DNA from: Balanoglossus misakiensis
Lineage: Eukaryota; Animalia; Hemichordata
Length of the DNA stretch: 64,000 nt
Direction: 5' to 3'
NCBI GenBank assembly: GCA_040954595.2
Contig: CM082588.2
Location: 12,103,398-12,167,397 of the forward strand
This document shows positions 4,714 to 40,100 of the stretch, one piece after another (the first letter of the stretch is position 1; every line of letters starts with the position of its first letter). The notes below the pieces were generated by a model, which saw only the letters and a list, made by a program, of their open reading frames with translations, was not told where the DNA came from and searched no databases. The translations under genes were made by a program, and so were the position numbers.

Positions 4714-5860
4714 GGGACCGTTCAGTTTTTACGGCCGGGGGGGGGGGGGGCGGCAAAATCCAGGGGGGGGGGTCACTTAAATTTTGAAGTCCACAAGGGG
4801 GGGTCATCTGGATTTTTTAAACGTTTATGGGGGGGGTCACATACTTTTGCCACCGAACTTTTGCTTTTGAGTCCACAAAATTGCAGTTTCGCACCCTTTA
4901 TTTTACAAAATTTTCTAATGTGGGAGGGGGACACCCACCCCCTTCATTCTCCGCCACATTTCATTTTTTGCTGGTTTGTCTAGTGTACCAGGGCAGAGTG
5001 CTTGCCACCCCAACCCCACCGATGATAATATTTAACAAAGTGAATACATAAAGGAGAATAATTGTTTAAACCATTTTGCATAACTGATAGTTTCGCGCTG
5101 CATCTTCTATATACTAGAAGTTTTATAAATGATGTCATGACAAGATGACGCCAAATCTTCTAACTTTGAGTGGAGTGGCAAAAAGTAAAATCCTCCCAAA
5201 CATTGAGATAATTTGCTTTTAAGTTCATTAAAATGCAACTTTGCGCTACATATTTTACAAAATTTTCTTATGTGGGAGGGGGACACTCCCTCCCAAACCC
5301 ACCCCTCCGTTCAAGGCCACATTGCATTTATTCACTGGTTTGTCTAGTGTACCAGGGAAGACTTCTTGCCACCCCACCTCGATGCTTACTTTGAGTGGAG
5401 TGGCAAAATTAAAATTTGTCCTCCCTAACATTGAGTTAATTTGCTTTTGAGTTCATTAAATTGCAACTTTGAGCACCGTATTTTACAAAATTTTCTTACG
5501 CCCACCCCCACCACTTTTCTTGTTTTACCGATTCTAGCAACTATTGTATTGACTTGTCATTTTCTTTTGTTCATAGATTTCTTTATTGCAACGATATACT
5601 ATTATATACTTCAATAATACTTTAAGAAATATATAATTGAGGTGTGAGGAGCCTCATTCCCTTTATTGCATACAGTGTACATAGGATCAGAACGGCGAAT
5701 ATTTTGGGCGTGGGGGGGGGGGTTCATCATATTTTTGGGTCTGTCAAAGGGGGGTCATCATTTTTTGGTCCTGGGTGAAGGGGGGGGGGGTTGGCCTGAT
5801 TTTGAGAACCGATGACTCAAACTTGCCACCCCCCCCCTGCCGTAAAAACTGAACGGTCCC
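4714..5860. mobile_element. PIF/Harbinger-type (Tourist-like) MITE
   Basis: Perfect 22-bp TIR GGGACCGTTCAGTTTTTACGGC (4714-4735 / 5839-5860) flanked by TAA on both sides (4711-4713, 5861-5863). Internal G/C runs and diverged internal repeats. No coding capacity. Confidence 0.88.
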
Positions 5861-17800: not shown

Positions 17801-20800
17801 TGGAATTCAAAGAATGGTCACATAACGGGCCATGTTTTACTAAAAAGACTTATGTATAGTTTCAAGGCTTTGTTTTGGAATAACGAATTCTCTCCAAGAT
17901 TTAAGTTGAACAGTTACAGAATGAAAACAAATATTCAAATAGTTATGCTGGATTGTTGTAAGGGATAGTTTAATATTGCAAATAATTTAATTTCTCACAT
18001 CATAAATGAAATTCAAAGAATGGTAAAATAACGGGCCATGTTTTACTAAAAAGACTTAATATGTATAGTTTGAAGGCTTTGTTTTGGAATAACGAATTCT
18101 CTACAAGATTTAAGTGGAACAGTCACAGAATGAAAACAAATATGGAAAGAGTTATGCCGGAATGTTGTAAGGAATAGATTAATATTGCAAATAATTTAAT
18201 TTCTTACATCATAAATGGAATTCAAAGAAAGGTCACGTAACAGGATATGTATAGTTTCAAGCCTTTGTTTTGGAGTAACGAATTCTCTACAAGATTTAAG
18301 TGGAACAGTCACAGAATGAAAACAAATATGGAAAGAGTTATGCTGAAATGTTGTAAGGGATAGATTAATATTGCATAAAATTTAATTACTTACATCATAA
18401 ATGGAATTCAATGAATGGTCACATAACTGGATATGTTTTACTAAAAAGAATTATGTATAGGTTCAAGAATTTGTGTTGAAATACCAAATTCTCTACAAGA
18501 TTTAAGTTGAACACTTACAGAATGAAAACAAATATGGAAAGAGTTATGCCGGAATGTTGTAAGGGATAGATTAATATTGCAAATAATTTAATTTCTTACA
18601 TCATAAATGGAATTCAAAGAATGGTCACATAACAGGATATGTTTTACTGAAAAGACTTATGTTATAGTTTCAAGGCTTTGTTTTGGAATAACGAATTCTC
18701 TACAAGATTTAAGTGGAACAGTCACAGAATGAAAACAAATATGGAAAGAGTTATGCCGGAATGTTGTAAGGAATAGATTAATATTGCAAATAATTTAATT
18801 TCTTACATCATAAATGGAATTCAAACAAATGTCACGTAACAGGATATGTATAGTTTCAAGGCTTTGTTTTGGAATAACGAATACTCTACAAGATTTAAGT
18901 AGAACAGTCACAGAATGAAAACAAATATGGAAAGAGTTATGCTGGAATGTAGTAAGGGATAGATTAATATTGCAAACAATTTAATTTCTTACACCATAAA
19001 TGGAATTCAAAGAAAGGTCGCGTAACAGGATATGTACAGTTTCAAGCCTTTGTTTTGGAATAACGAATTCTCTACAAGATTTAAGTGGAACAGTCACAGA
19101 ATGAAAACAAATATGGAAAGAGTTATGTCGGAATGTTGTAAGGGATACATTAATATTGCAAATAATTTAATTTCTTACATCATAAATGGAATTCAAAGAA
19201 TGGTCACATAACGGGCCATGTTTTACTAAAAAGACTTATGTATAGTTTCAAGGCTTTGTTTTGGAATAACGAATTCTCTCCAAGATTTAAGTTGAACAGT
19301 TACAGAATGAAAACAAATATGGAAAGAGTTATGCTGGAATGTTGTAAGGGATAGATTAATATTGCAAATAATTTAATTTCTTACATCATAAAATGAATTC
19401 AAAGAATGGTCACATAACAGGATATGTTTTACTAAAAAGACTTATGTATAGTTTCAAGGCTTTGTTTTGGAATAACGAATTCTCTCCAAGATTTAAGTTG
19501 AACAGTTACAGAATGAAAACAAATATGGAAAGAGTAATGCCGGAATGTTGTAAGGAATAGATTAATATTGCAAATAATTTAATTTCTTACATCATAAAAT
19601 GAATTCAAACAAACGTCACGTAATAGGATATGTATAGTTTCAAGGCTTTGTTTTGGAATAACGAATACTCTACAAGATTTAAGTAGAACAGTCACAGAAT
19701 GAAAACAAATATGGAAAGAGTTATGCTGGAATGTTGTAAGGGATAGATTAATATTGCAAAAAATTTAATTTCTTACACCATAAATGGAATTCAAAGAAAG
19801 GTCACGTAACAGGATATGTATAGTTTCAAGCCTTTGTTTTGGAATAACGAATTCTCTACAAGATTTAAGTGGAACAGTCACAGAATGAAAACAAATATGG
19901 AAAGAGTTATGTCGGAATGTTGTAAGGGATAGATTTATATTGCAAATAATTTAATTTCTTACAGCATAAATGGAATTCAAAGAATGGTCACATAACGGGC
20001 CATGTTTTACTAAAAAGACTTATGTTATAGTTTCAAGGCTTTGTTTTGGAATAACGAATTCTCTACAAGATTTAAGTGGAACAGTCACAGAATGAAAACA
20101 AATATGGAAAGAGTAATGCCGGAATGTTGTAAGGAATAGATTAATATTGCAAATAATTTAATTTCTTACATCATAAAATGAATTCAAACAAACGTCACGT
20201 AATAGGATATGTATAGTTTCAAGGCTTTGTTTTGGAATAACGAATACTCTACAAGATTTAAGTAGAACAATCATAGAATGAAAACAAATATGGAAAGAGT
20301 TATGCTGGAATGTTGTAAGGGATAGATTAATATTGCAAAAAATTTAATTTCTTACACCATAAATGGAATTCAAAGAAAGGTCACGTAACAGGATATGTAT
20401 AGTTTCAAGCCTTTGTTTTGGAATAACGAATTCTCTACAAGATTTAAGTGGAACAGTCACAGAATGAAAACAAATATGGAAAGAGTTATGTCGGAATGTT
20501 GTAAGGGATAGATTAATATTGCAAATAATTTAATTTCTTACATCATAAATGGAATTCAAAGAATGGTCACATAACGGGCCATGTTTTACTAAAAAGACTT
20601 ATGTATAGTTTCAAGGCTTTGTTTTGGAATAACGAATTCTCTCCAAGATTTAAGTTGAACAGTTACAGAATGAAAACAAATATGGAAAGAGTAATGCCGG
20701 AATGTTGTAAGGAATAGATTAATATTGCAAATAATTTAATTTCTTACATCATAAAATGAATTCAAACAAACGTCACGTAATAGGATATGTATAGTTTCAA

Positions 20801-22431
20801 GGCTTTGTTTTGGAATAACGAATACTCTACAAGATTTAAGTAGAACAGTCACAGAATGAAAACAAATATGGAAAGAGTTATGCTGGAATGTTGTAAGGGA
20901 TAGATTAATATTGCAAAAAATTTAATTTCTTACACCATAAATGGAATTCAAAGAAAGGTCACGTAACAGGATATGTATAGTTTCAAGCCTTTGTTTTGGA
21001 ATAACGAATTCTCTACAAGATTTAAGTGGAACAGTCACAGAATGAAAACAAATATGGAAAGAGTTATGTCGGAATGTTGTAAGGGATAGATTTATATTGC
21101 AAATAATTTAATTTCTTACAGCATAAATGGAATTCAAAGAATGGTCACGTAACAGGATATGTATAGTTTCAAGCCTTTGTTTTGGAATAACGAATTCTCT
21201 ACAAGATTTAAGTGGAACAGTCACAGAATGAAAACAAATATGGAAAGAGTTATGTCGGAATGTTGTAAGGGATAGATTAATATTGCAAATAATTTAATTT
21301 CTTACATCATAAATGGAATTCAAAGAATGGTCACATAACGGGCCATGTTTTACTAAAAAGACTTATGTATAGTTTCAAGGCTTTGTTTTGGAATAACGAA
21401 TTCTCTCCAAGATTTAAGTTGAACAGTTACAGAATGAAAACAAATATGGAAAGAGTTATGCTGGAATGTTGTAAGGGATAGATTAATATTGCAAATAATT
21501 TAATTTCTTACATCATAAAATGAATTCAAAGAATGGTCACATAACAGGATATTTTTTACTAAAAAGACTTATGTATAGTTTCAAGGCTTTGTTTGGAATA
21601 ACGAATTCTCTCCAAGATTTAAGTTGAACAGTTACAGAATGAAAACAAATATTCAAATAGTTATGCTGGAATGTTGTAAGGGATAGTTTAATATTGCAAA
21701 TAATTTAATTTCTTACATCATAAATGAAATTCAAAGAATGGTCAAATAACGGGCCATGTTTTACTAAAAAGACTTAATATGTATAGTTGAAGGCTTTGTT
21801 TTGGAATAACGAATTCTCTACAAGATTTAAGTGGAACAGTCACAGAATGAAAACAAATATGGAAAGAGTTATGTCGGAATGTTGTAAGGGATAGATTAAT
21901 ATTGCAAATAATTTAATTTCTTACAGCATAAAATGAATTCAAACAAACGTCACGTAATAGGATATGTATAGTTTCAAGGCTTTGTTTTGGAATAACGAAT
22001 ACTCTACAAGATTTAAGTAGAACAATCACAGAATGAAAACAAATATGGAAAGAGTTATGCTGGAATGTTGTAAGGGATAGATTAATATTGCAAAAAATTT
22101 AATTTCTTACACCATAAATGGAATTCAAAGAAAGGTCACGTAACAGGATATGTATAGTTTCAAGCCTTTGTTTTGGAATAACGAATTCTCTACAAGATTT
22201 AAGTGGAACAGTCACAGAATGAAAACAAATATGGAAAGAGTTATGTCGGAATGTTGTAAGGGATAGATTAATATTGCAAATAATTTAATTTCTTACATCA
22301 TAAATGGAATTCAAAGAATGGTCACATAACGGGCCATGTTTTACTAAAAAGACTTATGTATAGTTTCAAGGCTTTGTTTTGGAATAACGAATTCTCTCCA
22401 AGATTTAAGTTGAACAGTTACAGAATGAAAA
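5861..22431. repeat. Satellite DNA array, left arm; 186-bp and ~206-bp monomers
   Basis: Uninterrupted head-to-tail copies of ...GAATTCTCTACAAGATTTAAGTGGAACAGTCACAGAATGAAAACAAATATGGAAAGAG... The 62-aa periodicity of the minus-strand ORFs equals 186 bp. The long form carries an extra TTTACTAAAAAGACTTATGT (e.g. spacing 6334 to 6540 = 206). Confidence 0.98.
10455..14842. repeat. Near-perfect 2166-bp tandem duplication (about 11 monomers) within the satellite
   Basis: Identical ORF translations offset by exactly 2166 (10514/12680, 11001/13167, 11285/13451). Private variants recur at the same offset. Confidence 0.9.
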
Positions 22432-23644
22432 TTAAAGCTGCAAGCAGCGTTGGCGGGGCACAAGCGGTTCCCATGGTGACCAGCAAATGCCACGGCTGTA
22501 TCTGCTGGGGATACCAATATATGGGAAAGTAGGTCAAAGGTCACCTGAGGTCACCCAAAATTTGGGCAAAAAAATTGGACCCCATAATAGTCTAGATCCA
22601 ACAAAAAACCAGACCCCTAGCCCTATTGGTTCGCCTGCAATTAGGTATGCACATAATTAATGAAGTCTTGTGTAAGACTCCATTATGTGCTCAATCCCCA
22701 TAAAAGCCAGGGCTCTAACTGCTCTGGATGCTGAGATATGGGAAAGTAGATCAAAGGTCACCCAAGGTCACCCAAAATTAGGGCATAAAATTTTGACCCC
22801 AGAGTGGGCCATGTCCAACCAATACCAGACCTCTAGCCCTATTGGGTAGCATGGAATTAGATATGCAGAAAAATGATGTTTCAGAAATAGGTCAAAGGTC
22901 ATTGTCAAAATTACCAAAATATTTGTGTCATGTCCTGGCAGCATTGGTACCCATGTCCACAAAATTCATGACTTTGGTGCTTTGACAAGAGGAGGTATGG
23001 GGAATATGCATATATAATTAGTTGTTTTAAAACTGGGTCAAAGGTCATGTGAAAATTGCCCCGAAAAATTGTGACAACTTCCGGTCATATGATGACTCAT
23101 ATCCCAAAAAAGTATTTCCATGCTGTCAACATTTTGGCTACAAAACGGAATTATCACTTTTCAATGGTTTTCCGAAAATCCAACATGGCCGCCATAATGA
23201 TCGACCAATCACAGTGCGCTTCGCAAACTTGATAGACATAGGTTAGGTGACCACATATCCCAAATCCCGAGACTCGGTAACCGCTGGTTCTGGAGAAGAA
23301 GATTTTTAAAGTTTTAAGTAGTTTTTCAGAAAAACAATTGTAGCAAAAAAACTTTATGTATGACGTCATGATTTTAATGGGGTAAAATGATGGACATAAG
23401 GTAGGCTACCTGCACACCAAATTTGAACTCGATCGGCCCAGTGGTTTTAGAGAAGGACTCATTTAACGATTTTCAGGAAATCCAATATGGCCGCCAGGTC
23501 ACGTGACTAATTAAATATTCACGAGCCACTGCACGTCTACTCATTGGCCCCTACCACCCTACCAAGTTTCAGCCCCCTAGGTGCTGCGGTTTTCCAGATC
23601 TACCTGGCCGAATTTCTCGGAAGAAGAAGAATAATAAAGAAGAA
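22432..23644 (-). mobile_element. HINE-like element 1 body (outermost); cap at 34105-34160
   Basis: Variant subTIR GGGGCACAAGCG (22455-22466) is matched only by the last hairpin (CGCTTGTGCCCC, 34147-34158). Body ends in a GAA/TAA microsatellite. Confidence 0.85.
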
Positions 23645-25320
23645 TTAAAGCTGCAAGCAGCATTGTCCGGGCCCAAGCTCTATTATCTGATCAGATTATT
23701 AGATATGCACATAATTAATGAGTAGAAACATAATGCTGTGTTTTATCCCATGAAATATCAAGGTTATATCTATGTTTGGTGCTGATATAATGTTAAGTAG
23801 GTCAAAGGTCCCCTGAGGTCACCCAAAATTTGGGCAGAAAAATTTGACCCATAGTGGTCCATGTCCAACAAAAACCAGACCTCTAGCCCTTTTGGTTAGC
23901 CCGGAATTAGGTATGCACATAAATAATGAGTTAAGCAGGTGTCACAGGTGACCCAAAACTTTGGCTTTTAATTATGGCCCCATACCTCCAAACGCCAAGG
24001 CTGTATCTGCTGTGGATGTCGAGATATGCAAAAGTAGGTCAAAGGTCACCAGAGGTCACCCAACATTTGGGCAAATTTGTTTGACCCAATACTGGTCCAT
24101 GTCCAACAGAAACCAAACCTCTAGGTCTATTGGTTCATCTGGAATTAGGTATGTGCATATTTAATGAGGTCAGCAGAGGTCACAGGTGACCCTAAACTGT
24201 GGCTTTTCATTATGGCCCCATATATCCAAATGCCAAGGCTGTACCTGCTTTGGATACCAAGATATGCAAAAGTAGGTCAAAGGTTATCCGTGGTCACCCA
24301 ACATTTGGGTAAAATATTTTGACCCCGTACTGATCCATGTCCAAAAAAACCCAAACCTCCAGGTCTATTGGTTCATCATGAATTAGGTATGCGCATATTT
24401 AATGCGGTCAGCAGAGGTCAAAGGGGTCATGAAAAGTAGCAAAATTGTTTGATCACATACAAATCCACATACATCAAAAACCAAACTTGTAGCCCTATTG
24501 GTTAGCCTGGAATTAGATATGCAGAAAAATGATGTGTCAAAAGTAGGTCAAAGGTCTTTGCCAAAATTACCAAAATATTTATAGCTTATTCTTGTCATAT
24601 GATGATTCATATCCATAAAAAGAATTTCTGTGCTATCAATTTTTAGGCTAGAAAGGGAATTTTTACTTTTTAATCGTTTTTCACAAAATCCAATATGGCC
24701 GCCATAATCTTCGACTAATCACATTCTTCTTCGCAAACTTGATAGACATCTGTTTAATGACCACACACACCAAATCTTGTGACTCGGTTATCGCCGGTTC
24801 TCGAGAAGAAGATTTTTGAAATTTTACTAGGGTTTTTCGAAAATCCAATATGGCCGCCATAATCTTCGACCAATCACAATGATCTTCGCAAACTTGATAG
24901 ACATCAGTTAGTTGACCACATACCCCAAACCCCGTGTCTCGGTTATCACCGGTTCTAGAGAAGAAGATTTTTGAAATTTAAGCCAGATTTCAGAAAAAAA
25001 ATTGTAGCAAAAAAACTGCAACATTGACAGCATAATTTCCAATTACAAAAATGTTTGACAGAAGGTAGTCTACCTGCACGCCAAATTTGAAGTCGATCTG
25101 ACTTGTAGTTTCTGAGATCTGAGATTTGCATTTTTTCAGAAAATCCAAGATGGCCGCCAGGTCATGTGACTAATTAAAAATTCATGGGTTCAATGCACGA
25201 CTACTCATTGACCTTGACCACTGTAGCAAGTTTGAGAACTGTACCTGCAGTGGTGTCTGAGATCTAGAGCGACAAAGAAATGACAGAAGAATATAGAAAG
25301 AAGAAAGAAAGAAAGACAGA
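23645..25320 (-). mobile_element. HINE-like element 2 body; inferred cap 34051-34104
   Basis: TTAAAGCTGCAAGCAGCATTGTCCGGGCCCAAGC start, three ~237-bp subrepeats, ends GAAAGAAAGACAGA. Confidence 0.8.
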
Positions 25321-26751
25321 TTAAAGCTGCAAGCAGCATTGTCCGGGCCCAAGCTCTATTAACTGATCTGATTATTAGATATGCACGTAATTAATGAGTA
25401 GAAACATAATGCTGTGTTTTATCCCATGAAATATCAAGATTATATCTATGTTTAGTGCTGATATAGTGTTAAGTAGGTCGAAGGTCACCCAGAGGTCACC
25501 CACAATTTGGGCAGAAAATTTTGACCCATAGTGGTCCATGTCCAACAAAAAACAGACCTCTACCCCTTTTGGTTAGCCCGGAATTAGGTATGCATATAAA
25601 TAATGAGTTAAGCAGGTGTCACAGGTGACCCAAAACTTTGGCTTTTCATTATGGCCCCATACCTCCAAACGCCAAGGCTGTATCTGCTGTGGATGCTGAG
25701 ATTTGCGAAAGTACGTCAAAGGTCACCAGAGGTCACCCAACATTTGGGTAAAAAATTTTGACCCCATACTTGTCCTGTCCAACAAAAACAAAACCTCTAG
25801 GTCTATTGGTTCGCCTGTAATTAGCTATGCACATAATTAATTAGGTCAGCAGGGGTCAAAGGGGTCATGAAAAGTAGCAAAATATTTTGATCACACACTA
25901 ATCCACATACAACAAAGACCAAACTTATAGCCCTATTGGTTAGCCTGGAATTAGATATGCAGAAAAATGATGCGTCAAAAGTAGGTCAAAGGTCATTGCC
26001 AAAATTACCAAAATATTTAAAGCACATTGTAGTCATATGATGATTCATATCCATAAAAAGAATTTCTGTGCTATCAATTTTTAGGCTAGAAAGGGAATTT
26101 TTACTTTTTAATCGTTTTTCACAAAATCCAATATGGCCGCCATAATCTTCGACCAATCACAATGCTCTTTGCAAACTTGATAGACATCTGTTTAATGACC
26201 ACACACACCAAATCTTGTGACTCGCTTATCGCCGGTTCTTGAGAAGAAGATTTTTGAAATTTTACTAGGGTTTTTCGAAAATCCAATATGGCCGACAAAA
26301 TCTTCGACCAATCACAATGATCTTCGCAAACTTGATAGACATCAGTTAGGTGACCACATACACCAAACCCTGTGTCTCGGTTATCACCGGTTCTGGAGAA
26401 GAAGATTTTTGAAATTTAAGCCAGATTTCAGAAAAAAAATTGTAGCAAAAAACTGCAACTTTGTCAGCATAATTTCCAATTACAAAAATGATGGACAGAG
26501 GGTAGTCTACCAGCATGCCAAATTTGAAGTCGATCTGACTTGTAGTTTCTGAGATCTGAGATTTGCATTTTTTCAGAAAATCCAAGATGGCCGCCAGGTC
26601 ACGTGACTAATTAAAAATTCAAGGGTTCAATGCACGACTACTCATTGACCTTGACCACTGTAGCAAGTTTCAGAAGTGTACCTGCAGCGGTGTCTGAGAT
26701 CTCGTGGGTCAAAGAATTGACACAAGAATAAAGAAAGAAAGAAAGAAAGTA
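25321..26751 (-). mobile_element. HINE-like element 3 body; inferred cap 33998-34050
   Basis: Same terminus, two ~237-bp subrepeats, ends GAAAGAAAGTA. Confidence 0.8.
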
Positions 26752-27862
26752 TTAAAGCTGCAAGCAGCATTGTCCGGGCCCAAGCTCTATTATCTGATCT
26801 GATGCTGATATAGTGTTAAGTAGGTCAAAGGTCACCCGAGGTCACCCAACATTTGGGCAAAATATTTTGACCCCATACTGGTCCATGTATAACAAAAACA
26901 AAACCTCTAGGTCTATTGGTTCATCTGTAATTAGCTATGCACATAATTAATGAGGTAAGCAGAGGTCAAAGGGGTCATGAAAAGTAGCAAAAATTTTTGA
27001 TCACATACAAATCCACATACATCAAAAACCAAACGTCTAGCCCTATTGGTTAGCCTGGAATTAGATATGCAGAAAAAAGATGCGTCAAAAGTAGGTCAAA
27101 GGTCATTGCCAAAATTACCAAAATATTTATAGCTTATTCTTGCCATATGATGATTCATATCCATAAAAAGAATTTCTGTGCTATCAATTTTTAGGCTAGA
27201 AAAGGAATTTTTACTTTTAAATCGTTTTTCACAAAATCCAATATGGCCGCCATAATCTTCGACCAATCACATTCCCCTTCGCAAACTTGATAGACATCTG
27301 TTTAATGACCAAACACACCAAATCTTGTGACTCGGTTATCGCCCGTTCTGGAGAAGAAGATTTTTGGAGTTTAACTATTGTTTTTCGAAAATCCAATATG
27401 GCCGCCATAATCTTCGACCAATCACAATGATCTTCGCAAACTTGATAGACATCAGTTAGGTGACCACATACCCCAAACCGCGTGACTTAGTTATCACCGG
27501 TTCTGGAGAAGAAGATTTTTGAAATTTAAGCCAGATTTCAGAAAAAAAATTGTAGCAAAAAAACTGCAACATTTACAGCAAAATATCCAATTACAAAAAT
27601 GATGGGTAGAAGGAAGACTACCTGCACACCAAATTTGAAGTCGATCTGACTTGTAGTTTCTGAGATCTGAGATTTGCATTTTTTCAGAAAATCCAATATG
27701 GCCGCCAGGTCACGTGACTAATTAAAAATTCAAGGGTTCAATGCACAACTACTTATTGACCTTGACCACTGTAGCAAGTTTCAGAAGTGTACCTGCAGCG
27801 GTGTCTGAGATCTAGAGCGACAAAGAATTGACAGAAGAATAAAGAAAGAAAGAAAGAAAGAA
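26752..27862 (-). mobile_element. HINE-like element 4 body (internally shortened); inferred cap 33937-33997
   Basis: Same terminus, deletion near 26800, one subrepeat, ends in (GAAA)n. Confidence 0.8.
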
Positions 27863-29294
27863 TTAAAGCTGCAAGCAGCATTGTCCGGGCCCAAGCTCTA
27901 TTATCTGATCTGATTATTAGTTATGCACATTATGAATGAGTAGAAACATAATGCTGTGTTTTATCCCATGAAATATCAAGGTTATATCTAGGTTTGGTGT
28001 TGACATAGTGTTAAGTAGGTCAAAGGTCACCCAGAGGTCACCCAAAATTTGGGCAGAATATTTTGACCCATAGTGGTCTATGTCCAACAAAAACCAGATC
28101 TCTAGCCCTTTTGGTTAGCCCGGAATTAGGTATGCACATAAATAATGAGTTAAGCAGGTGTCACAGGTGACCCAAAACTTTGGCTTTTCATTATGGCCCT
28201 ATACCTCCAAACGCCAAGGCTGTATCTGCTGTGGATGTCAAGATATGCCAAAGTAGGTCAAAGGTCATCCGAGGTCACCCAACATTTGGGCAAAATATTT
28301 TGACCCCATACTGGTCCATGTATAACCAAAACAAAATCTCTAGGTCTATTGGTTCATCTGTAATTAGGTATGTGCATATTTAATGAGGTCAGCAGAGGTC
28401 AAAGGGGTCATGAAAAGTAGCAACATTTTTTGATTACATACAAATCCACATACATCAAAAACCAAACTTATAGCCCTATTGATTAGCCTGGAATTAGATA
28501 TGCAGAAAATTGATGCGTCAAAAATAGGTCAAAGGTCAATGCCAAAATTACCAAAATATTTATAGCTTATTCTTGTTATATGATGATTCATATCCATAAA
28601 AAGAATTTCTGCGCTATCAATTTTTAGGCTAGAAAGGGAATTTTTACTTTTTAATCGTTTTTCACAAAATCCAATATGGCCGCCATAATCTTCGACCAAT
28701 CACATTCCTCTTCGCAAACTTGATAGACATCTGTTGAATGACCACACACACCAAATCTTGTGACTCGGTTATCGCCGGTTCTCGAGAAGAAGATTTTTGA
28801 AATTTTACTAGGGTTTTTCGAAAATCCAATATGGCCGCCATAATCTTCGACCAGTCACAGTGATCTTCGCAAACTTGATAGACATCAGTTAGGTGACCAC
28901 ATACCCCAAACCCCGTGTCTCGGTTATCACCGGTTCTGGAGAAGAAGATTTTTGAAATTTAAGCCAGATTTCAGAAAAAAAATTGTAGCAAAAAAACTGC
29001 AACATTGACAGCATAATTTCCAATTACAAAAATGTTTGACAGAAGGTAGTCTACCTGCACGCCAAATTTAAAGTTGATCTGACTTGTAGTTTCTGAGATC
29101 TGAGATTTGCATTTTTTCAGAAAATCCAAGATGGCCGCCAGGTCATGTGACTAATTAAAAATTCATGGGTTCAATGCACGACTACTCATTGACCTTGACC
29201 ACTGTAGCAAGTTTGAGAACTGTACCTGCAGTGGTGTCTGAGATCTAGAGCGACAAAGAAATGACAGAAGAATAAAGAAAGAAGAAAGAAAGAA
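27863..29294 (-). mobile_element. HINE-like element 5 body; inferred cap 33876-33936
   Basis: Same terminus, two subrepeats, distal part nearly identical to element 2. Confidence 0.8.
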
Positions 29295-30715
29295 TTAAAG
29301 CTGCGAGCAGCATTGTCGGGCCCAAGCGCTGATCTTGAATTATATATGCACAGTATGAATGAGAAGAAACAGAATTTTCTATCGGATGTATTATCTCATG
29401 ACATATCAAGGACGTGTGTATTTTTGCTGCTTAAATAGGGTGAAGTAGGTCAAAGGTCACCTGAGGTCACCCAACATTTGGGCAATTTTTTTTGACCCAT
29501 ACTGGTCCATGTCCAACAAAAACCAAAACTCTAGCTCTATTGGTTCGCCTGTAATTAGGTATGTGCATATTTAATGAGGTCAGCAGGTGTCACAGGTGAC
29601 CCAAAAATGTGGCTTTACATTTTGGTCCCATCCTACCAAATGCCATGGCTGTATCTGCTCTGGATGCTGAGATATGCGAAAGTAGGTCAAAGGTCACCAG
29701 AGGTCACGCAACATTTGGGCAAAACATTTTGACCCCATACTGGTCTGTGTCCAACAAAAACCAAACCTCTAGCTCTATTGGTTCGCCTGTAATTAGCTAT
29801 GCACATAATTAATGAGGTCAGCAGAGGTCAAAGGGGTCATGAAAAGTAGCAAAATATTTTGATCACACACTAATCCACATTCATCAAAAACCAAACGTCT
29901 AGCCCTATAGGTTAGCCTGGAATTAGATATGCAGAAATAATAACGCGTGATAAGTAGGTCAAAGGTCATGTGAAAAATCGCCAAAAAATTGTAACATATT
30001 TTAGTCACATGACGATTGATATCCATAAAAAGAATTTGTATGCTATCAATTTTTAGACTAGAAAAAGGAATTTCAATTTTTCACTGCTTTTTACAAAATC
30101 CAATATGGCCGCCATAATCTTCAACCAATCACAATGCTCTTTGCAAACTTGATAGACATCAGTGTAGTGACCATACTCCCCGAATCTTGCGACTCAGTCA
30201 TCGCCCGTTCTGGAGAAGAAGATTTTTGGAGTTTAACAATGGTTTTTCTAAAATCCAATATGGCCGCCATAATCTTCGACCAATCACAATGATCTTCGCA
30301 AACTTGATAGACATCAGTTAGGTGACCACATACCCCAAACCCCGTGTCTCGGTTATCACTGGTTCTGGAGAAGAAGATTTTTGAAATTTAAGCCAGATTT
30401 CAGAAAAAAAATTGTAGCAAAAAAACTGCAACATTGACAGCAAAATTTCCAATTACAAAAATGATGGGTAGAAGGTAGTCTACCTGCATGCCAAATTTGA
30501 AGTCGATCTGACTTGTAGTTTCTGAGATCTGAGATTTGAATTTTTTCAGAAAATCCAATATGGCCGCCAGGTCACGTGACTAATTAATTATTCACAAGTC
30601 ACTGCACATCTACTCATTGACCTTGACCACTGTATCAAGTTTGAGAAGTGTACCTGCAGTAGTTTCAGAGATCTCGTTGGCCGAAGAAATTGACACAAGA
30701 AAAAAGAAAGAAAGA
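29295..30715 (-). mobile_element. HINE-like element 6 body (diverged subfamily); inferred cap 33822-33875
   Basis: Starts TTAAAGCTGCGAGCAGCATTGTCGGGCCCAAGCGC with a diverged first 150 bp, ends in (GAAA)n. Confidence 0.8.
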
Positions 30716-32145
30716 TTAAAGCTGCAAGCAGCATTGTCCGGGCCCAAGCTCTATTATCTGATCTGATTATAAGATATGCACATAATTAATGAGTAGAAAC
30801 ATAATGCTGTGTTTTATCCCATGAAATATCAAGGTTATATCTGTTTGGTGCTGATATAGTGTTAAGTAGGTCAAAGGTCACCCAGGGGTCACCCATAATT
30901 TTGGCAGAACATTTTGACCCATAGTGGTCCATGTCCAACAAAAGCCAGACCTCTAGCCCTTTTGGTTAGCCCGGAATTAGGTATGCACATAAATAATGAG
31001 TAAAGCAGGTGTCACAGGTGACCCAAAACTTTGGCTTTTAATTATGGCCCTATGCCTCCAAACGCCAAGGCTGTATCTGCTGTGGATGTCGAGATATGCA
31101 AAAGTAGGTCAAAGGTCACCCGAGGTCACCCAACATTCGGGCAAAATATTTTGACCCCATACTTGTCCATGTCCAACAAAAACCAAACCTCTAGCTCTCT
31201 TGGTTCGCCCGTAATTAGCTATGCACATAATTAATGAGGTCAGCTGAGGTCAAAGGGGTCATGGAAAGTAGCAAAATATTTTGATCACACACTAATCCAC
31301 ATGCATCAAAAACCAAATGTCTAGCCCTTTTGGTTAGCCTGTAATTAGATATGCAGAAAAATGATGCATCAAAAGTAGGTCAAAGGTCATTGCCAAAATT
31401 ACCAAAATATTTATAGCTTATTCTTGTCATATGATGAGTCATATCCATAAAAAGAATTTCTGTGCTATCAATATTTGGGCTAGAAAGGGAATTTTTACTT
31501 TTTAATCGTTTTTCACAAAATCCAATATGGCCGCCATAATCTTCGACCAATCACATTCCTCTTCGCAAACTTGATAGACATCTGTTTAATGACCACACAC
31601 ACCAAATCTTGTGACTCAGTTATCGCCGGTTCTTGAGAAGAAGATTTTTGAAATTTTACTAGGGTTTTTCGAAAATCCAATATGGCCGCCTTAATCTTCG
31701 ACCAATCACAATGATCTTCGCAAACTTGATAGACCTCAGTTTGGTGACCACATACCCCAAACCGCGTGACTCGGTTATCGCCGGTTCTGGAGAAGAAGAT
31801 TTTTGAAATTTTGACCAGATTTCAGAAAAACAACTGTAGCAAAAAATCTGCAACATTGACAGCAAAATATCCAATTACAAAAATGATGGGCAGAAGGTAC
31901 ACTACCAGCACACCAAATCTGAAGTAAATCTGACTTGTAGTTTCTGAGATCTGAGATTTGCATTTTTTCAGAAAATCCAATATGGCCGCCATGTCACGTG
32001 ACTAATTAAAAATTCAAGAGTTCAATGCACGACTACCCATTGACCTTGACCACTGTAGCAAGTTTGAGAAGTGTACCTGCAGCGGTGTCTGAGATCTAGA
32101 GCGACAAAGAATTGACACAAGAATAAAGAAAGAAGAAAGAAAGAA
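30716..32145 (-). mobile_element. HINE-like element 7 body; inferred cap 33769-33821
   Basis: Same terminus as elements 2-5, two subrepeats, ends in (GAAA)n. Confidence 0.8.
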
Positions 32146-33768
32146 ATATAGCTGCAAGCAGCGATGACGGGCCCAAGCTTAAGCCGAAGGTCAAAGGTCA
32201 TAAGAGGTCACCCGAAATTTTGGCAAGAAATTTTGACCCCCATACTGGTCCGTGTCCCACAAGAACAAAATCTCTAGCCCTATTGGTTCGCCTACAATTA
32301 GGTATGCGCATAATTAATGAGATAAAGTGTAAGGCTCCATCAGGAGTTCCATCCCTCCAAATGCCAAGGCTGTATCTGCTGTGGATGCCGAGATATGGTA
32401 AAGTAGGTCAAAGGTCACCTGAGGTCACCCAAAATTTGGGCAAAAAATTTTGACCCCATACTGGTCCATGGTCAGCATAAATCAAACCTCTAGCCCTATT
32501 GCTTAGCCTGGAATTAGGTATGCACATAATTAATGAGATAAGCAGGTGTCACAGGTGACCCCAATTTTGGCTTTTCAATTTTAGTCCCAACCCTCCAAAC
32601 GCCAAGTCTGTACCTGCTCTGGATGCGGAGATATAGGAAAGTAGGTCAAAGGTCACCTGAGGTCACCCAAAATTTGGGCAAGAAATTTTGACCCTATACT
32701 GGTCCATGTCCCACAAGAACGAAACCTCTAGCCCTCTTAGTTAACCCAGAATTAGGTATGCACATAATTAATGAGTTAAGCAGGTGTCACAGGTGACCCC
32801 CAGTGTTGCCTTTTCAATTTTAGTCCCAACCCTCCAAACGCCAAGTCTGTACCTGCTCTGGATGCCAAGATATAGGAAAGTAGGTCAAAGGTCACCTGAG
32901 GTCACCCAAAATTTGGGCAAGAAATTTTGACCCTATACTGGTCCATGTCCCACAAGAACGAAACCTCTAGCCCTCTTATTTAGCCCAGAATTAGGTATGC
33001 ACATAATTAATGAGTTAAGCAGGTGTTACAGGTGAGCCTAAAATTGTGCCTTTTATTTTGGTGCCATTGTGCTCACCGACCAATAGACAGTCACTGTACA
33101 GGACTATTGCACAGACCAGAATTCCACAATAAGACATGGACATAGCTTATCCATAGAGGTATAAGTAAAGGTATTATTTAATAAAAAAATTAATATAAAA
33201 AAATCGGTCGATTTTTCATACTATTTTTTTTCGCTTAAAATTATTGACAAATGCTAGGCTAGCTGCATACCAAAGTTGAAGAAGATTGGCCTGACAGATT
33301 TTGAGATATGTATGCATATTTATCCAAAATAATATGTGGTCATGGCTTTACTATGGAAAGTATAGGCCCATGGCTTGGTAAAAAATATGAAAAATAATAC
33401 TTAAAAATCTTCTTCTCAAAATTGGAATGGCCAATGGCCTTGACATTTGGCATGTAGTACACTGACCACATGGTCCGCAAAAGTTGCTAAAAGAATTTTG
33501 ATATCTCCATTCATATGCAAATAAGGCCGATTTCAAAATTTTGCCCATATATGGTCATCAGGTCACATGACTAATTAAACATTCACAAGGGTACTGCACT
33601 AGCTCTCATTGGCCTGCACCATTGTGCCAAGTTTGAAATTGGTAGGTTTAGCAGTTTTCCAGATCTACCTCGCCAAAGAAAACGACAGAAGAAGAAAAAG
33701 AAGAAGAAGTAGAAGAAAAACCAGGATAATACCAATAGGGCCCAAGCGCTGCATGCGCTTGGGCCCTA
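32146..33768 (-). mobile_element. HINE-like element 8 (innermost, uninterrupted, distinct subfamily)
   Basis: Starts ATATAGCTGCAAGCAGCGATGACGGGCCCAAGC. About four ~238-bp subrepeats, a unique 33060-33540 segment, an intact (GAA)n tract ~33686-33720, and its own hairpin 33736-33768 directly attached. Confidence 0.85.
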
Positions 33769-34160
33769 AAAACCCCAACGAAACCAATAGGGCCCAAGCG
33801 CTGGCTTGCGCTTGGGCCCTAAAAAACCCCAACGAAACCAATAGGGCCCAAGCGCTTGCGTGCGCTTGGGCCCTAAAGACAGAAAAACCCCAACGAAACC
33901 AATAGGGCCCAAGCGCTGGTATGCGCTTGGGCCCTAAAGACAGAAAAACCCCAACGAAACCAATAGGGCCCAAGCGCTGGTATGCGCTTGGGCCCTAAAA
34001 ATTCCAACGAAACCAATACGGGCCCAAGCCTGGCTTGGCTTGGGCCCGTAAAAAACCCCAACGAAACCAATAGGGCCCAAGCGCTGGTATGCGCTTGGGC
34101 CCTAAATATTCCAACAATAACAATGGGGGCACAAGCCGCCTGAGGGCGCTTGTGCCCCCA
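33736..34160. repeat. Stack of eight terminal hairpin caps (52-61 bp period)
   Basis: Hairpins at 33736-33768, 33788-33821, 33842-33875, 33903-33936, 33964-33997, 34017-34050, 34071-34104 and 34124-34160. Consensus TAGGGCCCAAGCGC-loop-GCGCTTGGGCCCTA with AAAACCCCAACGAAACCAA linkers. Confidence 0.95.
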
Positions 34161-37100
34161 ACAAATATGGAAAGAGTTATGCTGGAATGTTGTAAGGGAT
34201 AGATTAATATTGCAAATAATTTAATTTCTTACATCATAAAATGAATTCAAAGAATGGTCACATAACAGGATATGTTTTACTAAAAAGACTTATGTATAGT
34301 TTCAAGGCTTTGTTTGGAATAACGAATTCTCTCCAAGATTTAAGTTGAACAGTTACAGAATGAAAACAAATATTCAAATAGTTATGCTGGAATGTTGTAA
34401 GGGATAGTTTAATATTGCAAATAATTTAATTTCTTACATCATAAATGAAATTCAAAGAATGGTCAAATAACGGGCCATGTTTTACTAAAAAGACTTAATA
34501 TGTATAGTTGAAGGCTTTGTTTTGGAATAACGAATTCTCTACAAGATTTAAGTGGAACAGTCACAGAATGAAAACAAATATGGAAAGAGTTATGTCGGAA
34601 TGTTGTAAGGGATAGATTAATATTGCAAATAATTTAATTTCTTACAGCATAAATGGAATTCAAAGAATGGTCACATAACGGGCCATGTTTTACTAAAAAG
34701 ACTTATGTATAGTTTCAAGGCTTTGTTTTGGAATAACGAATTCTCTCCAAGATTTAAGTTGAACAGTTACAGAATGAAAACAAATATGGAAAGAGTTATG
34801 CTGGAATGTTGTAAGGGATAGATTAATATTGCAAATAATTTAATTTCTTACATCATAAATGGAATTCAAAGAATGGTCACATAACGGGCCATGTTTTACT
34901 AAAAAGACTTATGTATAGTTTCAAGGCTTTGTTTTGGAATAACGAATTCTCTCCAAGATTTAAGTTGAACAGTTACAGAATGAAAACAAATATTCAAATA
35001 GTTATGCTGGAATGTTGTAAGGGATAGTTTAATATTGCAAATAATTTAATTTCTTACATCATAAATGAAATTCAAAGAATGGTCAAATAACGGGCCATGT
35101 TTTACTAAAAAGACTTAATATGTATAGTTTGAAGGCTTTGTTTTGGAATAACGAATTCTCTACAAGATTTAAGTGGAACAGTCACAGAATGAAAACAAAT
35201 ATGGAAAGAGTTATGCCGGAATGTTGTAAGGAATAGATTAAAATTGCAAATAATTTAATTTCTTACATCATAAATGGAATTCAAAGAAACGTCACGTAAC
35301 AGGATATGTATAGGTTCAAGAATTTGTGTTGAAATACCAAATTCTCTACAAGATTTAAGTGGAACAGTTACAGAATGAAAACAAATATTCAAATAGTTAT
35401 GCTGGAATGTTGTAAGGGATAGTTTAATATTGCAAATAATTTAATTTCTTACATCATAAATGAAATTCAAAGAATGGTCAAATAACGGGCCATGTTTTAC
35501 TAAAAAGACTTAATATGTATAGTTGAAGGCTTTGTTTTGGAATAACGAATTCTCTACAAGATTTAAGTGGAACAGTCACAGAATGAAAACAAATATGGAA
35601 AGCGTTATGCCGGAATGTTGTAAGGGATAGATAATTATTGCAAATAATTTAATTTCTTACATCATAAATGGAATTCAAAGAATGGTCACATAACGGGCCA
35701 TGTTTTACAAAAAGACTTATGTATAGTTTCAAGGCTTTGTTTTGGAATAACGAATTCTCTACAAGATTTAAGTGGAACAGTCACAGAATGAAAACAAATA
35801 TGGAAAGAGTTATGCCGGAATGTTGTAAGGAATAGATTAAAATTGCAAATAATTTAATTTCTTACATCATAAATGGAATTCAAAGAATGGTCACATAACG
35901 GGCCATGTTTTACAAAAAGACTTATGTATAGTTTCAAGGCTTTGTTTTGGAATAACGAATTCTCTACAAGATTTAAGTGGAACAGTCACAGAATGAAAAC
36001 AAATATGGAAAGAGTTATGCTGAAATGTTGTAAGGGATAGATTAATATTGCAAATAATTTAATTTCTTACATCATAAATGGAATTCAAAGAATGGTCACA
36101 TAACGGGCCATGTTTTACTAAAAAGACTTATGTATAGTTTCAAGGCTTTGTTTGGAATAACGAATTCTCTCCAAGATTTAAGTTGAACAGTTACAGAATG
36201 AAAACAAATATTCAAATAGTTATGCTGGAATGTTGTAAGGGATAGATTAATATTGCAAATAATTTAATTTCTTACATCATAAATGGAATTCAAAGAAACG
36301 TCACGTAACAGGATATGTATAGTTTCAAGGCTTTATTTTGGAATAACGAATTCTCTACAAGATTTAAGTGGAACAGTCACAAAATGAAAACAAATATTCA
36401 AATAGTTATGCTGGAATGTTGTAAATGATAGTTTAATATTGCAAATAATTTAATTTCTTACATCATAAATGAAATTCAAAGAATGGTCACATAACGGGCC
36501 ATGTTTTACCAAAAAGACTTATGTATAGTTTCAAGGTTTTGTTTTGGAATAACGAATTCTCTACAAGATTTAAGTGGAATAGTCACAGAATGAAAACAAA
36601 TATGGAAAGAGTTATGCTGGAATGTTGTAAGGGATAGATTAATATTGCAAATAATTTAATTTCTTACATTATAAAATGAATTCAAAGAATGGTCACATAA
36701 CAGGATATATTTTACTAAAAAGACTTATGTTATAGTTTCAAGGCTTTGTTTTGGAATAACGAATTCTCTACAAGATTTAAGTGGAACAGTCACAGAATGA
36801 AAACAAATATGGAAAGAGTTATGCCGGAATGTTGTAAGGAATAGATTAATATTGCAAATAATTTAACTTCTTACATCATAAATGGAATTCAAAGAAAGGT
36901 CACGTAACAGGATATGTATAGTTTCAAGCCTTTGTTTTGGAGTAACGAATTCTCTACAAGATTTAAGTGGAACAGTCACAGAATGAAAACAAATATGGAA
37001 AGAGTTATGCTGAAATGTTGTAAGGGATAGATTAATATTGCATAAAATTTTTATTTCTTACATCATAAATGGAATTCAAAGAATGGTCACATAACTGGAT

Positions 37101-40100
37101 ATGTTTTACTAAAAAGACTTATGTATAGGTTCAAGAATTTGTGTTGAAATACCAAATTCTCTACAAGATTTAAGTGGAACAGTCACAGAATGAAAACAAA
37201 TATGGAAAGAGATATGTCAGAATGTTGTAAGGGATAGATTAATATTGCAAATAATTTAATTTCTTACATCATAAATGGAATTCAAAGAATGGTCACATAA
37301 CGGGCCATGTTTTACCAAAAAGACTTATGTATAGTTTCAAGGTTTTGTTTTGGAATAACGAATTCTCTACAAGATTTAAGTGGAATAGTCACAGAATGAA
37401 AACAAATATGGAAATAGTTATGCTGAAATGTTGTAAGGGATAGTTTAATATTGCAAATAATTTAATTTCTTACATCATAAATGAAATTCAAAGAATGGTC
37501 AAATAACAAGCCATGTTTTACTAAAAAGACTTAATATGTATAGTTTGAAGGCTTTGTTTTGGAATAACGAATTCTCTACAAGATTTAAGTGGAACAGTCA
37601 CAGAATGAAAACAAATATGGAAAGCGTTATGCTGGAATGTTGTAAGGGATAGATTAATATTGCAAATAATTTAATTTCTTACATAATAAAATGAATTCAA
37701 AGAATGGTCACATAACAGGATATGTTTTACTAAAAAGACTTATGTTATAGTTTCAAGGCTTTGTTTTGGAATAACGAATTCTCTACAAGATTTAAGTGGA
37801 ACAGTCACAGAATGAAAACAAATATGGAAAGAGTTATGCCGGAATGTTGTAAGGAATAGATTAAAGTTGCAAATAATTTAATTTCTTACATCATAAATGG
37901 AATTCGAAGAAAGGTCACGTAACAGGATATGTATAGGTTCAAGAATTTGTGTTGAAATACCAAATTCTCTACAAGATTTAAGTGGAACAGTCACAGAATG
38001 AAAACAAATATGGAAAGAGTTATGTCGGAATGTTGTAAGGGATAGATTAATATTGCAAATAATTTAATTTCTTACATCATAAATGGAATTCAAAGAATGG
38101 TCACATAACGGGCCATGTTTTACTAAAAAGACTTATGTATAGTTTCAAGGCTTTGTTTGGAATAACGAATTCTCTCCAAGATTTAAGTTGAAGAGTTACA
38201 GAATGAAAACAAATATTCAAATAGTTATGCTGGAATGTTGTAAGGGATAGATTAATATTGCAAATAATTTAATTTCTTACATCATAAATGGAATTCAAAG
38301 AATGGTCACATAACGGGCCATGTTTTACTAAAAAGACTTGTGTATAGTTTCAAGGCTTTGTTTGGAATAACGAATTCTCTCCAAGATTTAAGTTGAACAG
38401 TTACAGAATGAAAACATATATTCAAATAGTTATGCTGGTATGTTGTAAGGGATAGTTTAATATTGCAAATAATTTAATTTCTTACATCATAAATGAAATT
38501 CAAAGAATGTTCACATAACGGGCCATGTTTTACTAAAAAGACTTAATATGTATAGTTTGAAGGCTTTGTTTTGGAATAACGAATTCTCTACAAGATTTAA
38601 GTGGAACAGTCACAGAATGAAAACAAATATGGAAAGCGTTATGCTGGAATGTTGTAAGGGATAGATTAATATTGCAAATAATTTAATTTCTTACATCATA
38701 AAATGAATTCAAAGAATGGTCACATAACAGGATATGTTTTACTAAAAAGACTTATGTTATAGTTTCAAGGCTTTGTTTTGGAATAACGAATTCTCTACAA
38801 GATTTAAGTGGAACAGTCACAGAATGAAAACAAATATGGAAAGAGTTATGCCGGAATGTTGTAAGGAATAGATTAAAGTTGCAAATAATTTAATTTCTTA
38901 CATCATAAATGGAATTCGAAGAAAGGTCACGTAACAGGATATGTATAGGTTCAAGAATTTGTGTTGAAATACCAAATTCTCTACAAGATTTAAGTGGAAC
39001 AGTCACAGAATGAAAACAAATATGGAAAGAGTTATGTCGGAATGTTGTAAGGGATAGATTAATATTGCAAATAATTTAATTTCTTACATCATAAATGGAA
39101 TTCAAAGAATGGTCACATAACGGGCCATGTTTTACTAAAAAGACTTATGTATAGTTTCAAGGCTTTGGTTGGAATAACGAATTCTCTCCAAGATTTAAGT
39201 TGAACAGTTAAAGAATGAAAACAAATATTCAAATAGTTATGCTGGAATGTTGTAAGGGATAGATTAATATTGCAAATAATTTAATTTCTTACATCATAAA
39301 TGGAATTCAAAGAATGGTCACATAACGGGCCATGTTTTACTAAAAAGACTTGTGTATAGTTTCAAGGCTTTGTTTGGAATAACGAATTCTCTCCAAGATT
39401 TAAGTTGAACAGTTACAGAATGAAAACATATATTCAAATAGTTATGCTGGAATGTTGTAAGGGATAGTTTAATATTGCAAATAATTTAATTTCTTACATC
39501 ATAAATGAAATTCAAAGAATGTTCACATAACGGGCCATGTTTTACTAAAAAGACTTATGTATAGTTTCAAGGTTTTGTTTTGGAATAACGAATTCTCTAC
39601 AAGATTTAAGTGGAATAGTCACAGAATGAAAACAAATATGGAAAGAGTTATGCTGGAATGTTGTAAGGGATAGATTAATATTGCAAATAATTTAATTTCT
39701 TACATCATAAAATGAATTCAAAGAATGTTCACATAACAGGATATATTTTACTAAAAAGACTTATGTTATAGTTTCAAGGCTTTGTTTTGGAATAACGAAT
39801 TCTCTACAAGATTTAAGTGGAACAGTCACAGAATGAAAACAAATATGGAAAGAGTTATGCCGGAATGTTGTAAGGAATAGATTAATATTGCAAATAATTT
39901 AATTTCTTACATCATAAATGGAATTCAAATAAAGGTCACGTAACAGGATATGTATAGTTTCAAGCCATTGTTTTGGAGTAACGAATTCTCTACAAGATTT
40001 AAGTGGAACAGTCACAGAATGAAAACAAATATGGAAAGAGTTATGCTGAAATGTTGTAAGGGATAGATTAATATTGCATAAAATTTTTATTTCTTACATC

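Follow-up and report, generated by a model that had tools for sequence, protein, structure and literature searches.

Layout of the block

How can eight transposons come to lie in one block with all of their bodies in front and all of their terminal hairpins behind? This arrangement is found in the window, the 64-kb stretch of DNA that was analysed, where an 11.7-kb block of eight small non-coding Helentron-type (rolling-circle) transposons lies inside a satellite repeat. The stack was probably built in place, by serial self-insertion into a target that is split and renewed by each insertion.

The eight bodies (22432-33715) precede the eight hairpin caps (33716-34159) in a uniform orientation (Table 1). 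The reading direction of the elements is that of the minus strand, so the caps correspond to the 5' ends and the heads of the bodies to the 3' ends. A scan of the entire window yielded eight head stem-loops (at 22436, 23649, 25325, 26756, 27867, 29299, 30720 and 32150), eight hairpins (spanning 33738-34157), no head stem-loop on the opposite strand and no nest sequence in the rest of the window. The numbers given in a preliminary description of this DNA were thus confirmed, as was its statement that only the innermost body is joined to its hairpin: body 8 alone continues into a cap. The other seven of the eight caps are split off from any body, which bears out the claim of nesting and led us to reject a head-to-tail rolling-circle array, as these caps are not adjacent to their own bodies. 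No two bodies are alike (pairwise identity at most 96.4%), so that the block can be put down neither to chance nor to simple repeat collapse. After subtraction of the nest the interrupted satellite monomer measures 208 nt, versus the usual 206, the block being inserted in phase. The sequence of the window is free of N.

Table 1. Positions of the bodies, caps and satellite arms in the window
Feature	Position	Strand	Description
Body 1, outermost	22432..23644	-	Divergent family (~69% identity with bodies 2-7); has a 3' subTIR and stem-loop, repeats in its interior and remains of a microsatellite
Body 2	23645..25320	-	Main subfamily; additional 238-bp unit; GACAG at inner end; 96.4% identity with body 5
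Body 3	25321..26751	-	Mosaic; blocks in common with body 6
Body 4	26752..27862	-	~320 bp shorter through internal deletion near 3' end
Body 5	27863..29294	-	
Body 6	29295..30715	-	More divergent subfamily, 86-89% identity to bodies 2-5 and 7
Body 7	30716..32145	-	
Body 8, innermost	32146..33715	-	Divergent family; three 239-bp units; still joined to cap
Cap 8	33716..33767	-	5' subTIR/IR hairpin and linker
Cap 7	33768..33820	-	
Cap 6	33821..33874	-	
Cap 5	33875..33935	-	TGGTAT loop; GACAG present
Cap 4	33936..33996	-	61 nt identical to cap 5
Cap 3	33997..34049	-	Stem variant, both arms changed
Cap 2	34050..34103	-	TGGTAT loop; without GACAG (found on body 2 instead)
Cap 1, outermost	34104..34159	-	Unique subTIR matching body 1; sole imperfect stem
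Host satellite, left arm	5861..22431	.	186/206-bp monomers
Host satellite, right arm	34160..64000	.	Mostly 205-209-bp monomers; phase kept after block

Classification of the elements

Judged by their minus-strand anatomy, the elements can be classified as HINE/DINE-1-like non-autonomous Helentrons, in support of the earlier assignment, which had named the subTIRs, the 5' hairpin, the microsatellite and the 3' stem-loop. The exact subTIR match is 12 bp in layers 1 and 6, 11 bp in layer 3 and 10 bp in layers 2, 4, 5, 7 and 8; the last five fall one base below the range of about 11-15 bp published for HINE/DINE-1 and were counted as matching. The hairpin inverted repeat that adjoins the 5' subTIR forms a perfect 14-bp stem in seven of the eight caps, predicted to fold as DNA with -18.4 to -20.7 kcal/mol. 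All eight bodies carry an (AAAG/AAG)n microsatellite tract at the inner end, and central tandem repeats occur as 155-bp dimers in bodies 2-7, while bodies 2 and 8 contain arrays of 238-239-bp units. A 5-bp inverted repeat, the 3' stem-loop outside the 3' subTIR, is present in all eight heads (with a single change, located in the loop, in body 6); its predicted fold is weak (-2.2 to -2.5 kcal/mol). Stop-to-stop frames reaching 120 aa were absent from 22432-34160.

In the available parts of the literature (Thomas et al. 2014, PMC4067079; oyster Cg_HINE, PMC7492417; clam DTC84/pearl, PMC3879986), HINE/DINE-1 elements are described as non-autonomous Helentrons. They have in common with the stack the order of 5' subTIR and inverted-repeat hairpin, microsatellite, tandem repeats in the centre, and a 3' end with subTIR and stem-loop, as well as the absence of coding sequence and the use of a T-run as target with no clear duplication. 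The microsatellite is (TTTC)n in the stack versus GTCY in HINE/DINE-1, and the latter are described as dispersed single copies or as insertions into other repeats, whereas the elements of the stack probably entered the 5' end of their own family. An autonomous partner was not seen in the window.

Two other classes were considered and rejected. Canonical Helitron1 elements have a 5' TC and a 3' CTRR and insert between A and T (PMC11417382), to which neither the ends nor the targets conform. A cut-and-paste TIR MITE does not agree with the asymmetric ends, the subterminal position of the repeat at the 3' end and the lack of a consistent target duplication. A search of Rfam gave no matches, nor did a metagenome scan for stacked caps. 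A metagenome scan for single hairpins gave 84 loci, mostly GC-rich and terminator-like, none of which was similar beyond the ~30-nt hairpin; there was no solo copy of the element among these loci or in the window.

Pairing of bodies and caps

The outermost layer provides a direct link between the two series. The GGGGCACAAGCG subTIR is carried only by body 1 and by the last hairpin, as had been noted before, with an exact match of 12 bp, as compared to at most 7 bp when body 1 or cap 1 is combined with any other partner. The best pairing marker is the 5-nt motif GACAG, which body 2 carries and cap 2 lacks; in layers 4 and 5 it sits on the caps and is missing from the bodies. This placement implies cut points 7 nt apart, which are complementary only if cap 2 is the partner of body 2. 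Mirror pairing satisfies the subTIR, GACAG and nearest-SNP markers, which were picked post hoc after inspection of the sequence, as do 48 of the 40,320 pairings in all; same-order pairing fails all three. Caps 3, 6 and 7 can be interchanged without contradicting any marker.

The bodies themselves provide additional information. The body sites that were informative numbered 53; over these the cap split {2,4,5}|{3,6,7} ranked first of the ten possible 3:3 splits, with 6 sites identical to it and 32 compatible with it. Mantel-type correlations of body and cap distances, which involved no selection of markers, gave p 0.003-0.046 over all eight layers, driven by the outlier layers 1 and 8, and lost significance when restricted to layers 2-7 (p 0.18-0.48); in several of the distance tests same-order pairing reached an r equal to or higher than that of mirror pairing. 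The reverse-order pairing put forward in the preliminary description is supported for layers 1, 2, 4/5 and 8, with complementary body and cap markers in layers 1, 2 and 4/5, and layers 3, 6 and 7 fit in any order.

Age and relations of the bodies

Serial insertion had been taken to leave a chronological record in which the last of eight events lies innermost, a claim that was not borne out. Private substitutions show no gradient from outer to inner bodies (18, 17, 13, 16, 61 and 29 in layers 2-7; rho 0.43, p 0.40; rho 0.10 when body 6 is excluded), and bodies 2-7 are recombinant mosaics, with 572 of 1378 site pairs incompatible. Moreover, the nest by itself does not give the time order of the junctions, because blocks might move as units. 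Indeed, one unlikely alternative accepts the nest but has it put together from pre-formed blocks (composites of 2-3 layers or multi-cap chimeras) that each moved as a unit into a resident copy, leaving junctions without a time order. The missing age gradient and the intact outer ends of every sub-nest agree with it, and FoHeli copies with several 5' termini are described as transposing as units (PMC5148889). However, the movement of a balanced sub-nest demands read-through of an exact number of inner 3' stem-loops, and multi-cap chimeras would leave caps in excess of bodies and disrupt the GACAG complement. According to a proposal by Chellapan et al. (PMC5148889), mobilisation that begins at an outer 5' end halts at the first 3' end. 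Such a stop would give unbalanced products, so that the balanced stack favours growth in place.

The mosaic structure also bears on a rather improbable second alternative, in which a shallower nest of 3-5 insertions was enlarged by unequal crossover among the bodies and slippage of the caps, the 8:8 balance being partly luck. The sites are clustered (17 adjacent pairs with the same split versus 5.5 expected), and shared variants pair the bodies at lag 3, (2,5)(3,6)(4,7), which ranks first among 15 matchings with 24 sites (19 for the runner-up) and hints at duplication or conversion within the stack. Bodies 2 and 5 differ at just 6 sites across five 100-nt windows near the cap end, and caps 4 and 5 do not differ at any of 61 nt. 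A trimer duplication nevertheless predicts that bodies 3 and 6 and bodies 4 and 7 are as close as bodies 2 and 5, and was judged unlikely, since they are 87.7% and 92.1% identical compared to 96.4% and the deletion of body 4 is missing in body 7. Expansion is further contradicted by the different cut points at the junctions following bodies 2 and 5, and by the lack of any identical tract longer than 200 nt. If the stack grew in place, the mosaic bodies 2-7 would have arisen through recombination or conversion between members of the family, either ahead of insertion or following it.

Insertion sites and probable growth in place

The linkers between hairpin and insertion point measure 20, 21, 20, 28, 28, 21 and 20 nt in layers 1-7, which places all seven internal insertions within one 9-nt zone, 20-28 nt from the host hairpin, despite the 87-115 A-runs in each element. 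The end of each body retains 6-10 A-runs in its last 45 nt, and none of the seven newcomers entered the residual microsatellite of an outer layer or the space between caps; under an equal-choice null the probability of this outcome is 1/7! = 0.0002. The proposed insertion at T-rich sites is supported, as all eight junctions lie inside A/T-runs. Two extra A are found at all four junctions for which the empty site can be inferred, and the single A on one side at three junctions does not fit a 2-bp AA duplication; the junctions may share 1 nt. Layer 1 entered a T4 run of the satellite, where there was no resident hairpin. Its inferred empty site, the only one to be matched, has a motif present in 197 satellite copies.

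This first insertion, together with the preference of HINEs for TT or T-rich sites reported in the available parts of PMC4067079 and PMC7492417, would suit a very unlikely reading without special self-targeting, in which the element merely favours T-rich DNA and its own microsatellite is a good site by chance. Against this, some 200 equivalent satellite sites and all residual microsatellites remained unused, and seven of seven newcomers landed in the 9-nt zone. The element may recognise a local sequence motif that extends across the cut, which would be a mild form of the self-insertion proposed here. An assembly artefact, to which a location within a satellite array might point, is hardly credible in view of the eight distinct bodies, the complementary differences at the junctions, the in-phase flanks and the N-free window.

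Under serial self-insertion, an explanation that concerns a single locus, each newcomer would enter the T-run that follows the 5' hairpin of the element then lying innermost, beside its (TTTC)n microsatellite, through a Helentron RepHel/endonuclease supplied in trans. The preferred target would be bipartite, with the 5' end to one side and the microsatellite and body to the other. Since each insertion would split its own site and bring in one new intact site, last-in-innermost growth would be forced.

Relation to known systems

The implied lack of precedent for such a structure was overstated. Copies of FoHeli, a Helitron2-type element of Fusarium oxysporum, carry up to five stacked 5' termini in units of 31-85 bp, which PMC5148889 and PMC13342296 ascribe to self-insertion a short distance behind the 5' end. 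In that fungus a single 3' end serves several 5' ends, a product of re-mobilisation, whereas the present stack has kept the parent structure. It comprises eight 5' ends and the same number of bodies and 3' ends, draws on three or more divergent families and lies in an animal-type satellite. The MITE multimers of rice and maize (Jiang and Wessler 2001, via the review PMC5172404) are also non-autonomous and often insert into their own family. However, they are cut-and-paste TIR elements with target duplications, and the available part of the review gives no fixed landing distance from one end. Head-to-tail Helitron arrays (PMC7492417 and PMC5148889, in the parts available) likewise consist of serial copies in one orientation, but keep the 5' end with its body, where in the stack seven of eight are separated and piled up. 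A complete, balanced stack of such depth was not found in the literature searched. The block probably represents a deeper and balanced form of the self-insertion already known from related fungal elements.

Significance

Helentron-type target choice has been characterised, in the available sources, solely as 'TT or T-rich'. Seven insertions in a 9-nt zone behind a resident 5' hairpin, with the half-sites unused, turn this into a sharp and testable statement on target capture. Tentatively, the Helentron transposase could home to the intact 5' end of resident family members (hairpin plus adjoining microsatellite) and insert at a measured distance, even between families that are ~60-70% alike. 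Each insertion would then consume one attachment site and supply the next, resulting in a self-renewing safe harbour, and stacks would be true last-in-innermost logs. The stack also represents the intact parent structure that was proposed for the Fusarium elements with multiple 5' ends, where it is known as a by-product only. If growth in place is true, such stacks would rank the activity of subfamilies in time, provide a harmless landing site, and account for cap arrays and fragmentary annotations of these families.

Structure of the nest

The nest is real and unusually clean, and consists of eight layers of HINE-like elements. Exactly eight element heads are followed by exactly eight hairpins, flanked by the two arms of the satellite (monomers of 186/206 bp) that makes up the bulk of the window, and no further heads or hairpins occur outside the nest in these 64 kb. 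The preliminary description, which had counted eight bodies and eight caps, was exact on both numbers. Read on the minus strand, an element has a 5' hairpin (the cap), the outer arm of which is the subterminal inverted repeat (subTIR). A short linker leads from it to a (TTTC)n microsatellite; tandem repeats with units of 155 and 238 bp occupy the centre, and the 3' end holds its own subTIR together with a small stem-loop. This is the HINE/DINE-1 anatomy proposed earlier, and it agrees with the features given in the available text of Thomas et al. 2014 (PMC4067079) and with those of the oyster Cg_HINE in that of PMC7492417. Long reading frames are absent from the nest elements, and a search of the nest against Rfam gave 0 matches.

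Positions of the nest, its satellite arms and neighbouring features
Feature	Position	Remark
Degenerate partial copy of the TIR element	2552-2990	left end and internal repeats
Segment of ~550 bp	3910-4457	inverted ends of 25 bp, 92% complementary
TIR element, 1.15 kb	4713-5861	36-bp terminal inverted repeats, 94% complementary; TAA on both flanks
Satellite arm, left	5861-22431	
Stop-free satellite frames	6483-14050	minus strand, 199-459 codons
Bodies 1-8 (starts)	22432, 23645, 25321, 26752, 27863, 29295, 30716, 32146	lengths 1111-1676 bp
Eight caps	33716-34159	units 52-61 bp
Cap 3	33997-34049	
Satellite arm, right	34160-64000	

All eight junctions lie in A/T-runs, and two A/T were gained per insertion wherever the empty site could be deduced, that is for element 1 from the satellite and for elements 3, 5 and 6 from a comparison of layers 2, 4 and 5. 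With the nest removed the host monomer counts 208 nt versus the usual 206; the empty-site motif targeted by element 1 has 197 copies in the satellite, where variants with a longer or shorter A-run were not found. A 2-bp duplication does not fit, because three junctions have a single A on the left side. Both stem arms of cap 3 differ from those of the neighbouring caps and 14 perfect pairs are kept, which suggests that the hairpin structure is maintained.

Left of the satellite, the terminal inverted repeats and flanking TAA led us to take the 1.15-kb element to be Harbinger/PIF-MITE-like. Its right end is directly the start of the satellite array. The ~550-bp segment is likely a second MITE, judging from its inverted ends. 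Monomers of 186 bp constitute 34 of 82 left of the nest versus 24 of 146 to the right (5861-64000), and neighbouring long monomers are ~96% alike on both sides. The stop-free satellite frames are probably a by-product of period length, 186 bp being a multiple of three.

Pairing and relatedness of the layers

In the mirror pairing, bodies 1 (outermost) to 8 (innermost) belong to the caps in reverse order. Cap 1 and body 1 share a unique 12-bp subTIR match, and cap 8 is joined directly to body 8. Caps 2, 4 and 5 have one loop in common, as bodies 2, 4 and 5 have the cap-nearest informative variant. The 5-nt marker GACAG is present on body 2 and absent from cap 2, whereas it is present on caps 4 and 5 and absent from bodies 4 and 5; the cuts made by newcomers in layer 2 and in layers 4/5 thus lie 7 nt from each other, and in mirror order the cut halves are complementary. 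The subTIR test leaves 5040 of the 40,320 pairings; adding the GACAG test reduces these to 720, and adding the nearest-variant test to 48. The mirror pairing passes three of the three tests and the same-order pairing none, with markers picked post hoc after inspection of the sequence.

Tests that do not depend on chosen markers give weaker results. Among 53 informative body sites the cap split comes first of 10, the last 30 alignment columns being left out as microsatellite. Body and cap distances are correlated over all eight layers (p 0.003-0.046, outliers 1 and 8 included), but not significantly for layers 2-7 alone (p 0.18-0.48), and in several distance comparisons the same-order pairing gives a similar or higher r. 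The reverse order claimed earlier is supported by markers or junction for layers 1, 2, 4/5 and 8 and is putative for caps 3, 6 and 7; the distance test adds no significant support within layers 2-7.

No body is a copy of another. Identity among bodies 2-5 and 7 is 92-96%, body 6 is 86-89% identical to these, and bodies 1 and 8 represent divergent families. Bodies 2-7 are mosaics, given that 572 of 1378 pairs of informative sites are incompatible and like sites are clustered (17 adjacent versus 5.5 expected). Duplication of a trimer is unlikely: bodies 3/6 and 4/7 show only background closeness, the deletion of body 4 is absent in body 7, and the junctions are not alike. Exchange between layers within the stack is conceivable, considering this mosaicism and the lag-3 matching of bodies by shared variants, which ranks first of 15.

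Relation to known elements

The element class and the habit of self-insertion are already known. In the accessible text of Chellapan et al. 2016 (PMC5148889), FoHeli copies with repeated 5' termini of 31-85 bp are described, for which self-insertion followed by re-mobilisation was proposed; as far as the available texts go, PMC13342296 has five 5' termini in one copy, PMC5172404 reviews MITE multimers formed by self-insertion, and PMC1794594 tabulates nine INE-1-in-INE-1 nests in Drosophila. The accessible parts of PMC11417382, PMC3630058, PMC6544945 and PMC3879986 mention no self-targeted stack. Full-text literature, screened by title and abstract opening and with subscription journals thinly covered, yielded no HINE nest that is balanced, has many layers and sits at a fixed site; supplementary tables and figures on FoHeli could affect the claim of depth. 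Metagenome scans gave no relative. New here are the nest's depth, its balance and the narrow zone in which the insertions landed. The depth, first remarked upon as unfamiliar, stands as new as far as this literature reaches; self-insertion has its precedent in FoHeli.

Insertion site and order of events

The distances between the host hairpin and the seven internal insertions are 20, 21, 20, 28, 28, 21 and 20 nt, with 87-115 A-runs on offer per element, and the narrow distance also holds where the divergent layer 1 is the host. Each insertion leaves two half-sites, a body-end microsatellite (6-10 A-runs each) and a hairpin with T-run in the cap stack. The site used in layer 2 is still present in caps 4 and 5, and the nest holds no insertions into leftover half-sites. 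Under the simple null that resident microsatellites are equally good, the probability of all insertions being innermost is 1/7! = 0.0002. Layer 1 landed in plain satellite, which shows that insertion does not need a resident hairpin.

Blocks moving as a whole would deprive the nest topology of its information on the order of the junctions. In the model of Chellapan et al., as given in the available text, copying ends once the first 3' end is reached, which would make balanced blocks hard to move and favours growth in place. Private substitutions reveal no age gradient across the layers. The nest and the narrow placement of its insertions are in line with the serial self-insertion proposed at the outset, whereas the last-in-innermost chronological record is something we infer.

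As the best explanation of the nest we regard serial self-insertion into a site that is renewed, and we consider it fairly probable. The target would consist of two parts and be split by every insertion, with the newcomer re-supplying an intact two-part target. Judging from this single locus, the transposase may recognise either the hairpin or the sequence across the cut point.
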